Source of the DNA: a virus
Lineage: Duplodnaviria; Heunggongvirae; Uroviricota; Caudoviricetes
DNA length: 64,000 nt
IMG/VR virus record: IMGVR_UViG_3300029305_005988
Span: 59,096-123,095 of that record
Strand: one strand, 5' to 3'
Position numbers and translations under genes: made by a program. Under the pieces are notes generated by a model, which saw nothing but the letters and a program-made list of their open reading frames with translations, was not told where the DNA came from and made no database searches. Of this stretch, positions 42,165 to 42,378 are shown one piece after another (position 1 is the first letter of the stretch; each line of letters opens with the position of its first letter).

Positions 42165-42220
42165 ATTGATTTCTTAAAAAAATTTAATTATAATATATAT
42201 GTAATGAGTTAAGAAATCAT
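42165..42220 (+). promoter_or_regulatory. promoter for suppressor tRNA
   Basis: ttaattgatttcttaaaaaaatttaattataat. Confidence 0.5.
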
Positions 42221-42319
42221 TGGGGGGTCGCTTAATGGTCATAGCAGCGGTCTCTAAAACCGCCAGAGCCTACGGGTCTGCTCCGTAGTATGTGGGTTCG
42301 AGTCCCACCCCCCCAGCCA
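42221..42319 (+). tRNA. amber-suppressor tRNA(CUA), Gln-type identity, with 28-nt extra (variable) arm
   Basis: stem gcggt/accgc loop ctCTAaa; U1:A72, G73, tc-gct D-arm as in tRNA-Gln; variable arm ctacgg-gtctgct-ccgtag hairpin; T-arm gtggg/ttcgagt/cccac; CCA. Confidence 0.6.
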
Positions 42320-42321
42320 AT

Positions 42322-42357
42322 TGTGCCTCCTTCGTGAGCTTTGAAGGAGGCTTTTAA
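42322..42357 (+). terminator. rho-independent terminator
   Basis: gcctccttcgtgagctttgaaggaggc+tttt. Confidence 0.65.
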
Positions 42358-42378
42358 TCTATCAATAAGGAGTAACTA

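Follow-up and report, generated by a model that had tools for sequence, protein, structure and literature searches.

How is an amber suppressor tRNA charged when its new anticodon is not the one that its synthetase reads? A tRNA gene in a Caudoviricetes phage raises this question. The gene lies in a stretch of 64,000 nucleotides (nt), called the window here, which comprises positions 59,096 to 123,095 of IMG/VR record IMGVR_UViG_3300029305_005988. A preliminary description, made from the letters of the window, had reported a stand-alone tRNA(CUA) of Gln ancestry with an extra arm. We found that the extra arm is a hairpin of the size of an anticodon arm, with 6 base pairs (bp) and a 7-nt loop, and that its loop carries the Gln anticodon motif U33'-C34'-U35'-G36' (primed numbers refer to this second arm). 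The explanation that we propose for the whole, with a probability of about 0.6, is that the gene encodes a Gln-inserting UAG suppressor, a tRNA-Gln derivative with two anticodon-type arms, the second of which would act as a surrogate identity element.

A CUA tRNA with a second anticodon-type arm

A tRNA had been described between 42165 and 42360. By direct reading it lies within that interval on the plus strand (Table 1), and RF00005, the Rfam tRNA model, matches it over its full length at 56.3 bits (E = 7e-11; model positions 1-71; gathering score 29), which is a mid-rank score among the 23 Rfam tRNAs in the window. The alignment places CUCUAAA in the anticodon loop and counts 25 nt as an insertion in the variable region. 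Divided into its helices and linkers, the tRNA reads UGGGGGG-UC-GCU-UAAUGGUCAU-AGC-A-GCGGU-CUCUAAA-ACCGC-CAGAGC-CUACGG-GUCUGCU-CCGUAG-UAU-GUGGG-UUCGAGU-CCCAC-CCCCCCA-G-CCA. The earlier details, namely the 99-nt length, the stem gcggt/accgc, the loop cuCUAaa, U1:A72, G73 and a hairpin in a 28-nt region, all agree with this reading. Both the minimum-energy and the centroid structures from RNAfold are five-armed cloverleaves (-38.7 kcal/mol), and the second arm (arm 2) in isolation folds at -8.4 kcal/mol.

The first anticodon arm (arm 1) has the features of an amber-suppressor anticodon arm: CUA at positions 34-36 in a 7-nt loop, U33, a purine at 37 and a closing stem of 5 bp. In the loop of arm 2, the Gln-type triplet CUG stands at 42278-42280 and is preceded by U at 42277. 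The preliminary description had called this arm class-II-like, a term that its anticodon-arm dimensions and the Gln anticodon motif in its loop refute. ARAGORN and Rfam found no other CUA tRNA among the tRNAs of the window.

Running a tRNA finder had been suggested as a check. ARAGORN did detect the gene but labelled it 'tRNA-??? (taaa)' instead of CUA. We rejected this four-base anticodon, which is drawn with a shifted anticodon stem containing a mismatch, an 8-nt loop and an unfolded arm 2; the label is a tool artefact of the very long variable region. ARAGORN gives CUA for 53 of 58 relatives of the tRNA, and it mislabels or misses the longest-armed members. In TAG-recoded phage genomes, suppressor tRNAs have been detected in only ~40%, and it has been speculated that non-canonical structures may hide them from detection (Borges et al., bioRxiv 10.1101/2021.08.26.457843). 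The failures of ARAGORN on long arms may be part of the reason for this low rate.

Gln ancestry of the tRNA body

In Escherichia coli, Gln identity resides in the acceptor stem and in the anticodon, where U35 has the central role and G36 serves both binding and recognition; mutations can lower activity by as much as 10^5-fold (PMC9976931). The acceptor-side identity set is complete in the suppressor: U1:A72 (a weak 1:72 pair), G2:C71, G3:C70, G73 and G10. The Gln anticodon Y34-U35-G36 is absent from arm 1, which reads C34-U35-A36 and so lacks G36; C-U-G occurs in arm 2 only. It is also known that an amber tRNA-Trp gets charged with Gln (PMC9976931).

The window encodes an ordinary tRNA-Gln(UUG) (Table 1), with which the suppressor has in common the acceptor identity set, U8-C9 and the 3-bp D stem. 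Among the window tRNAs it is the best match to the suppressor body, by a narrow margin (score 23 versus 20 for tRNA-Glu). The Gln ancestry proposed earlier therefore stands, on the Gln-like acceptor and D arm and, narrowly, on this closest match. The variable region of the suppressor starts with CAG and ends with U, like the CAGU variable loop of tRNA-Gln(UUG), and it looks as if a hairpin module had gone into that loop. The anticodon loop of the same tRNA-Gln, CUUUGAC, is identical to the arm-2 loop of two relatives of the suppressor (L009 and L012) and differs by one base from that of three others (L072, L031 and L078).

TAG as a sense codon for Gln

We then asked how TAG is used. On the plus strand, ORFs (open reading frames) of at least 80 codons end in TAA (55), TGA (37) or TAG (5); each of the last five lies inside a longer frame or overlaps tRNA genes. 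When TAG is treated as sense, long-ORF coverage increases from 0.66 to 0.78 in the window. TAG is shunned as a terminator and used as a sense codon in this phage.

Three endonuclease genes are predicted clients of the suppressor (Table 1). The homing-endonuclease gene downstream of the tRNA has two in-frame TAGs and many uninterrupted homologues of ~280 amino acids; its second TAG, in EFDGE[TAG]H, falls in a column where 115 of 120 full-length homologues have Q. In the GIY-YIG endonuclease gene that starts at 24501, all four TAG positions are Q in 85%-identical homologues. At the TAG that follows YIG, 65 of 66 homologues have Q. Because TAG columns align with conserved Gln in homologues, TAG is best read as Gln. 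Further in-frame TAGs occur in ORFs at 52372-53926 and in minus-strand genes at 9.6-14 kb; for the latter, PHROG matches were weak (helix-turn-helix regulators) or absent and hence uninformative. No TAG occurs in the replication genes in view. Early genes of the phage avoid TAG; its use as a sense codon is seen in the genes of homing endonucleases and in a small number of others. In the recoded gut (Agate) phages of Borges et al., too, homing-endonuclease genes within early genes are recoded.

In all probability, to judge from these alignments, the tRNA is a functional amber suppressor that inserts Gln at UAG (genetic code 15). That it is the likely decoder of the in-frame TAGs, as had been suggested, accords with its being the only CUA tRNA in the window and with the Q columns.

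Two regions with TAG-containing genes have further peculiarities. The GyrB-like gene is split in two (43891-45171 and 46271-46912, plus strand) by a GIY-YIG gene, and Rfam at its gathering threshold found no group I intron at 43891-46912. The minus-strand block at 9600-14006, with several ORFs that contain in-frame TAGs, has a low GC content (0.32-0.35) and a reversed GC skew; one of its ORFs (12123-11386) has three TAGs within a short NYDYN repeat.

Conservation of arm 2 in close relatives

The preliminary description had also regarded the arm as an unusual graft onto a class-I tRNA. It is not a one-off and belongs to a large family of phage suppressors. A 100% identical copy of the tRNA was found on a separate JGI metagenome contig (L003), and two relatives from another metagenome are 98% (L293) and 91% (L292) identical to it. 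The acceptor pair G6:C67 is A6:U67 in both, a compensatory swap and the one compensatory pair of L293. Of the nine differences between L292 and the window tRNA, eight make up four compensatory pairs, located in the acceptor stem (6:67), in arm 1 (G27:C43 to A27:U43) and, twice, in arm 2; the ninth turns G2:C71 into G2:U71. All loops of L292 are unchanged, and the arm-2 loop GUCUGCU is kept in both relatives. Because the stem changes are compensatory and the loop is unchanged, we conclude that purifying selection acts on arm 2, loop included, in this lineage.

Nine distinct tRNAs make up a subfamily with a full-size second arm (the window tRNA, L293, L292, L072, L031, L078, L009, L222 and L233). 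They share one layout: an upstream linker of 6 nt, an arm-2 stem of 5-6 bp, a 7-nt loop and a downstream linker of 3-4 nt. In this subfamily, all 45 cells of the arm-2 stem are paired, with eight pair types changed on both sides. Support for arm 2 equals that for the acceptor stem (63/63) and the T stem (45/45); in the D stem, 27 of 27 cells are paired, and GC/CG/UA is swapped to UA/UA/CG. It is highly likely that arm 2 is a selected Gln-anticodon-like arm.

The locus of one subfamily member (L031, 8238-8409, plus strand) contains a 75-nt class-I CUA tRNA directly followed by the 97-nt two-arm CUA tRNA, and also encodes tRNA-Gln(UUG) and tRNA-Gln(CUG).

A wider family of two-arm CUA tRNAs

To survey such tRNAs more broadly, we scanned IMG/VR with patterns constrained solely in the T loop and the inner part of the anticodon arm; the hits lay mostly on contigs of 50-430 kb. 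The family sample is bound by the exact patterns used (T loop GGTTCGANTCC, the inner anticodon stem and particular arm-2 loops). Among 153 unique phage CUA tRNAs, the variable loop has 4-6 nt in 77, and in 57 the variable region is 17-28 nt long. At the arm tip, 50 of these 57 long-arm tRNAs have U-[C/U]-U-G and two more have C-[C/U]-U-G. The consensus of the arm-2 loop is Y32' U33' Y34' U35' G36' A37' N38', and the commonest loops were CUCUGAA (25), UUCUGAG (6), CUUUGAA (4), CUCUGAC (4), UUCUGAA (4) and CUUUGAC (2). In ordinary tRNA-Gln(CUG/UUG) genes of the same loci, the anticodon loops were CUUUGAC (14), CUUUGAA (8), CUCUGAA (2) and CUCUGAC (2). Four of the arm-2 heptamers (CUCUGAA, CUCUGAC, CUUUGAA and CUUUGAC) are thus identical to genuine tRNA-Gln anticodon loops from the same loci, and position 34' is C or U, which gives exactly both Gln anticodons.

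The stem of arm 2 covaries across the family. In 43 distinct arms, 79% of the stem cells are paired and the covariation is 0.701, compared with 0.197 +/- 0.036 in shuffles (0 of 500 as high) and 0.09-0.20 in slid registers. The loop-adjacent pair is CG in 34 arms, GC in 4, UG in 2, AU in 1 and UA in 1; the second pair is GC in 19, CG in 15, UA in 4 and AU in 2. A weak or mismatched 1:72 pair with G73 is found in ~41 of the 57 long-arm tRNAs, whereas short-loop CUA tRNAs mostly have G1:C72 and A73. The Gln loop motif is missing from the long-arm CUA tRNAs that are of class-II type (G1:C72, A73). The reverse order, with the cognate arm first and the suppressor arm second, was absent among 99 short-loop CUA tRNAs. 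A search with the exact 18-mer of the anticodon arm yielded only unrelated class-II-type CUA tRNAs.

The two-arm CUA tRNAs lie in TAG-recoded DNA. In their loci, long-ORF coverage gains 0.204 with TAG as sense and 0.098 with TGA; the larger gain came from TAG in 25 two-arm CUA loci and from TGA in 1, and short-loop CUA loci showed no TAG bias. On contigs of bacterial and archaeal genomes, the motif was present in 8 of 31 pattern hits, all eight with a weak 1:72 pair. The 23 motif-less hits in metagenome-assembled genomes (MAGs) nearly all have G1:C72 and come from Acidobacteria, Thermoguttaceae and others. The motif-bearing bins are of gut or rumen Bacillota type (Lachnospiraceae, Oscillospiraceae, Faecalibacterium, Acutalibacteraceae, Erysipelotrichaceae and a 164-kb 'Mollicutes' contig), binning being weak evidence of a host; one motif-bearing tRNA is in a Nanosyncoccus bin.

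True class-II-type CUA tRNAs, with G1:C72, A73 or G73, class-II D loops and arms of 14-34 nt without a Gln-like loop, were encountered both on large phage contigs of IMG/VR (L001, L002, L022, L030, L052 and L088) and on MAG contigs of Acidobacteria, Thermoguttaceae and others (L216, L219, L224, L227 and further contigs). They could read UAG as Leu, Tyr or Ser.

Opal suppressors with a Trp-like arm

A scan for a UCA loop combined with a Trp anticodon loop yielded ~30 phage contigs (IMG/VR loci L245-L274; for example, L253 at 9001-9052 and L250 at 320-371). These two-arm UCA tRNAs have a bacterial Trp-type acceptor (A1:U72, G73) and a variable region of 25-28 nt, in which a 5-6 bp stem closes the Trp loop CUCCAAA; 94% of the stem cells are paired, and the covariation is 0.910 versus 0.209 in shuffles. 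Four scans of identical format returned 56 tRNAs with CUA and a Gln loop, 1 with CUA and a Trp loop, none with UCA and a Gln loop and 30 with UCA and a Trp loop (Fisher p = 1.6e-22). The loci of the two-arm UCA tRNAs lean towards TGA (11 versus 6). The arm-2 triplet thus follows the reassigned amino acid in each of two independent families of suppressors.

One crossed combination (L017, 7800-7892, plus strand) is a CUA tRNA with G1-U72 and G73, whose arm GAGGU-GUCCAAA-GCCUC has a Trp-like CCA loop; a further crossed case (L275) has a poor acceptor stem.

Proposed role of arm 2 in aminoacylation

A suppressor anticodon necessarily destroys one identity determinant, and we propose that arm 2 stands in for it. 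Arm 1, beside the D arm, would carry CUA and decode, and arm 2, in the variable region, would display the Gln anticodon as U-C-U-G. The Gln-charging enzyme of the host, either glutaminyl-tRNA synthetase (GlnRS) or a non-discriminating glutamyl-tRNA synthetase (GluRS) followed by GatCAB, would need U35 and G36; CUA has lost G36, and arm 2 would supply it. On balance we lean towards arm 2 being such a surrogate cognate anticodon arm, one that regains the synthetase recognition lost with CUA, its role in aminoacylation being inferred from established rules of tRNA identity. Either arm 2 would occupy the anticodon position during aminoacylation, or it would be an accessory site. When tRNA-Gln is bound to GlnRS, its three anticodon bases are splayed apart, each into a pocket of its own, and the anticodon stem is lengthened by two non-Watson-Crick pairs. 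Arms able to swap under the D stem are favoured because a full-size arm with a spacing of 3-4 nt has canonical anticodon-arm dimensions; an accessory contact is favoured instead because many family members have 2-4 uninterrupted arm-2 pairs. We found no phage-encoded GlnRS by tblastn with E. coli GlnS in the window and 2.5 Mb of flanks, which are short and represent parts of genomes.

The enzymes for Gln and Trp are both anticodon-reading class-I synthetases, and tryptophanyl-tRNA synthetase likewise depends on its anticodon, C34-C35-A36. Gln and Trp are the two amino acids of phage reassignments, and the charging of phage suppressors by host enzymes is an open question (Borges et al.). A conserved second arm with the cognate anticodon, for UAG to Gln and for UGA to Trp, would be a concrete answer that mutation can test. 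For the design that synthetic biologists built by hand, it would provide a precedent from nature, and for genetic-code expansion a source of parts.

Several observations weigh against this explanation. E. coli supE is a plain tRNA-Gln(CUA) that works without an extra arm, and many phages, too, have class-I CUA tRNAs. The many members with just 2-4 uninterrupted arm-2 pairs could not perform a simple swap of arms, and some motif-bearing members have ends that are not Gln-like (C1:G72 with U73 or A73). The window loop GUCUGCU itself departs from the family consensus at 32' (G instead of a pyrimidine), at 37' (C for the A found in 46 of 50 members) and at 38'. The family members are related and the patterns restrict the sample, so that the counts do not measure prevalence and the shuffle controls overstate independence. 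The charging role is moreover read from sequence, and a rigid synthetase meets the anticodon ~70 Å from the acceptor end, where an arm projecting from the core would not obviously be. The main physical objection is this distance of the variable-arm tip, which in an engineered case called for an extra, linker-fused binding domain (Mukai, PMC7590224).

A bolder version of the proposal, which we find rather doubtful, is a 'two-headed' bistable adaptor in which each hairpin is able to stack below the D stem. When the cognate arm (CUG/UUG for Gln, CCA for Trp) is in place, the synthetase would see a normal tRNA-Gln or tRNA-Trp and charge it; with the suppressor arm (CUA/UCA) in place, the ribosome would read the stop codon. 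Reading of a cognate codon by the other head would be harmless, the same amino acid being inserted. If true, such bistability would be a general and convergent route to UAG-to-Gln and UGA-to-Trp reassignment via unmodified host enzymes, and it would explain why only these two anticodon-dependent class-I synthetase systems have been exploited.

Alternative explanations

A 28-nt variable region with a stable hairpin, together with G73, which is also the tRNA-Ser discriminator, could indicate a tRNA that is class II in function, with UAG read as Ser, Leu or Tyr after charging by the seryl-, leucyl- or tyrosyl-tRNA synthetase. These enzymes use or tolerate long variable arms, and those for Ser and Leu ignore the anticodon; true class-II-type CUA tRNAs do exist in phages and MAGs, and the position after YIG is Ser in some GIY-YIG subfamilies. 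The TAG columns, however, are Q in 115/120 and 65/66 homologues and at 4/4 TAGs against the nearest homologues, the acceptor has U1:A72 rather than G1:C72, and the D stem has 3 bp as in the phage tRNA-Gln. A 6-nt linker precedes the arm, the 7-nt loop holds a Gln anticodon, and the class-II-type CUA tRNAs are without that motif, all of which makes charging by one of these three enzymes highly improbable. It is about as hard to believe that the sequence is a decayed tRNA and that another tRNA, of the phage or its host, reads through TAG. ARAGORN assigns the gene no identity, only 64 kb are visible and few in-frame TAGs occur in the window; but the covariance-model score is high, the canonical helices are intact, substitutions in close relatives are almost all compensatory, CCA is encoded with a terminator after it, and this sole CUA tRNA of the window belongs to a class tied to TAG-recoded loci.

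Arm 2 might instead be a neutral scar, left by a tandem duplication of the tRNA-Gln anticodon arm after which one copy became CUA and the other lost its function. The order of the parts (D arm, 1 nt, arm 1, linker, arm 2, 3-4 nt, T arm) does resemble a duplicated anticodon arm, the variable region has the form CAG...U reminiscent of the CAGU of tRNA-Gln, and the window loop has drifted at 32', 37' and 38'. This origin without a present function is improbable, given that the core U33'-Y34'-U35'-G36' persists in 50/57 long-arm tRNAs while stems, linkers, acceptors and D arms vary with compensation, that GUCUGCU is unchanged in relatives with two compensatory substitutions in the arm-2 stem, and that the UCA family has the same design with a Trp loop, implying repeated origin or long retention. 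Nor need a conserved arm be read by a charging enzyme: its reader could be another factor that recognises Gln (or Trp) anticodon loops, such as an anticodon-loop modification enzyme, an anticodon nuclease or defence sensor of the host (with arm 2 as decoy or shield) or a timing factor of the phage. Conservation of the loop sequence, and not of the hairpin alone, would fit such a reader; an RNA-repair module 2-5 kb upstream hints at a conflict over tRNA cleavage, and many arms are too short to replace an anticodon arm. The strict match of triplet and amino acid, combined with a matching Gln- or Trp-like acceptor, is what aminoacylation predicts, however. Cleavage of a decoy within the same molecule would still destroy the tRNA, and no candidate partner gene adjoins it, the neighbouring ORF (42379-42876) being without a family match. 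We therefore consider a non-charging reader unlikely, though it deserves to be kept in mind.

Relation to known tRNAs

E. coli supE (glnV, tRNA-Gln CUG to CUA) resembles the window tRNA in its Gln body, U1:A72 and G73, CUA anticodon and insertion of Gln at UAG. It is charged by the ordinary Gln system and has a variable loop of 4-5 nt, compared with 28 nt including a CUG arm here. Pyrrolysine tRNAs (tRNA-Pyl), the label that ARAGORN gives to relatives of the window tRNA, combine CUA with a variable loop of 3 nt, a very small D loop and a lengthened anticodon stem, in contrast to the 28-nt variable region, 10-nt D loop, 5-bp anticodon stem and canonical T loop of the window tRNA. Nor is the window tRNA a selenocysteine tRNA.

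The tRNA-Sup(CUA) of code-15 phages (crAss-like, Lak, Agate and other phages; Borges et al., bioRxiv 10.1101/2021.08.26.457843; Peters, PMC9523058; phAss-1, PMC10607447) are like the window tRNA in that TAG is Gln, TAG stops are avoided and a host synthetase is used. The two-arm tRNA is a member of this broad kind, and its second arm appears to be new among natural tRNAs: in the openly readable literature, recoded-phage papers included (subscription-only literature being outside the scope), we found no natural suppressor tRNA described as having a second arm that resembles an anticodon arm. In the theta-ribozyme study (PMC10879173), most suppressors are followed by a ribozyme like that of hepatitis delta virus (HDV); membership of that class calls for a cleavage site no more than 5 nt from the 3' end of the tRNA. 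The window tRNA differs from these in having an encoded CCA and a terminator-like hairpin instead of a ribozyme; a scan of 41000-43500 with Rfam gave no HDV-like or theta ribozyme (no ribozyme family at E <= 10).

The nearest conceptual relative is an engineered one, in which the variable arm of an amber allo-tRNA was replaced by the cognate anticodon arm for His, so that an anticodon-binding domain might recognise it. This GUG 'pseudo-anticodon' modestly raised charging by variants of histidyl-tRNA synthetase with a fused extra anticodon-binding domain (PMC7590224). The concept is the same, but that design is synthetic and built on a 9/3 allo-tRNA chassis, whereas the tRNA of the window occurs in nature, is of 7/5 geometry and presumably needs no modification of the host enzyme. 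In nature, the closest analogues are mimics of anticodon arms in mRNAs (the E. coli thrS operator and yeast mRNAs for aminoacyl-tRNA synthetases; PMC9976931), where the synthetase binds a hairpin outside the anticodon position. Mimics of the thrS type regulate translation of the synthetase from the mRNA, and the mimic described here lies inside the decoding tRNA.

A fifth helix between the anticodon and T arms also occurs in class-II tRNAs (Ser, Leu and bacterial Tyr) and in the nev-tRNAs of nematodes, variable-arm tRNAs with odd anticodons in which the arm and not the anticodon sets amino-acid identity (PMC3333845). In class-II tRNAs, the arm has a short loop that does not look like an anticodon and is accompanied by G1:C72 and a class-II D arm; the window tRNA differs in all of these, having U1:A72, a 3-bp Gln-like D stem and a 7-nt anticodon-like loop in the arm, and in that TAG is read as Gln. 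There is also a likeness to allo-tRNAs, which are metagenomic, some of them from phages, and have long variable arms and some suppressor anticodons (Mukai et al. 2017, PMC5389517). The window tRNA has a 7-bp acceptor stem and a 5-bp T stem (7/5), not 8/4 or 9/3, and these pairs are supported in the subfamily.

Genomic setting and other unusual tRNAs

The features discussed above are collected in Table 1. The preliminary description had given the tRNA its own promoter and terminator. A terminator-like hairpin is indeed present, but the promoter match is not above chance: sigma-70-like sites are no commoner here than in shuffles (6 found versus 4.7 expected). A placement outside the main tRNA array had been thought to suit temporal regulation; this idea is weak, given the status of the promoter match and given that in the closest relatives (L293, L292, L072, L031 and L078) the suppressor tRNA lies within tRNA arrays, so that the placement is not conserved. 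Nor does a Vsr-like homing-endonuclease gene adjoin the tRNA, as had been stated: the next gene is an uncharacterised ORF of 165 amino acids (42379-42876), and the endonuclease gene is one further. As a partner candidate, the 165-amino-acid ORF gave no Pfam or PHROG match.

Table 1. Coordinates in the window of the suppressor tRNA, its parts, its flanking elements, the comparator tRNA and genes with in-frame TAGs
Feature	Position	Strand	Remarks
Whole tRNA gene	42221-42319	+	99 nt; CCA encoded (42317-42319); discriminator G73 at 42316
Acceptor stem, 5' strand UGGGGGG	42221-42227	+	pairs with CCCCCCA 42309-42315; U1:A72, G2:C71, G3:C70
D arm	42230-42245	+	3-bp stem GCU/AGC, 10-nt loop, G10 present; preceded by U8-C9
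Arm 1 (decoding anticodon arm)	42247-42263	+	stem GCGGU/ACCGC, loop CUCUAAA, anticodon CUA 42254-42256
Variable region	42264-42291	+	28 nt; contains 6-bp hairpin CUACGG-GUCUGCU-CCGUAG
5' linker CAGAGC, arm 1 to arm 2	42264-42269	+	6 nt in every full-size-arm member
Arm 2 (pseudo-anticodon arm)	42270-42288	+	stem CUACGG/CCGUAG (42270-42275 with 42283-42288), loop GUCUGCU 42276-42282
3' linker UAU, arm 2 to T arm	42289-42291	+	3-4 nt in full-size-arm members, near ordinary variable-loop length
T arm GUGGG-UUCGAGU-CCCAC	42292-42308	+	45/45 cells paired in nine-member subfamily
Sigma-70-like promoter match TTGATT-17-TATAAT	42166-42194	+	27 nt 5' of tRNA; 10/12 matches; candidate only
Terminator-like hairpin, then TTTT	42325-42351	+	10 bp, 6 of them G-C; begins 6 nt after CCA
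Ordinary tRNA-Gln(UUG), comparator	27813-27888	+	U1:A72, G73, CCA, loop CUUUGAC, 4-nt variable loop CAGU
Homing-endonuclease gene, putative suppressor client	43050-43901	+	two in-frame TAGs, 43209-43211 and 43686-43688
GIY-YIG endonuclease gene, putative suppressor client	24501-25265	+	four in-frame TAGs: 24525, 24558, 24651, 24837
GIY-YIG endonuclease gene inside split GyrB-like gene, putative suppressor client	45405-46133	+	in-frame TAG at 45459 (YIG[TAG]S)

The RNA-repair module upstream of the suppressor (37636-39942, plus strand) comprises an RNA ligase (37636-38814), a polynucleotide-kinase-like P-loop protein (38916-39383) and a metallophosphoesterase (39376-39942), and suggests a defence against tRNA-cleaving host nucleases. 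Further upstream, an 837-amino-acid protein (32537-35050, plus strand) matches the shoulder domain of the Major Vault Protein (PF11978, E = 2e-24), an unusual find in a region of phage replication genes. There was no annotated GenBank relative to lean on, because megablast of 41200-43400 against GenBank phages gave no match, blastn of the suppressor tRNA gave only partial, chance-level matches, and the GyrA-like protein is at most 40% identical to that of any deposited phage.

The window contains other odd tRNA calls. Four made by ARAGORN (at 6930, 22599, 26200 and 27261) are absent from Rfam at its gathering threshold. One of these, 'tRNA-SeC (tca)' at 26200-26275 (plus strand), has G33 and a G1-G72 mismatch, and TGA is a common genuine stop in this phage (37 ORFs); the call is probably false and not an opal suppressor. 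Two Rfam tRNAs of ~44.7 bits each (20425-20495 and 23855-23926, plus strand) were missed by ARAGORN, and the second has an atypical T loop. A third tRNA missed by ARAGORN (23076-23201, plus strand; Rfam, 43.7 bits) carries 52 extra nt within its anticodon loop (AUGGA-CUUG[52 nt]-UCCAU). These fold into a long extension that ends in ACUGG-GUCAGCA-CCAGU, with a 5-bp stem and a 7-nt loop, so that this may be a further tRNA whose anticodon branch is non-standard.

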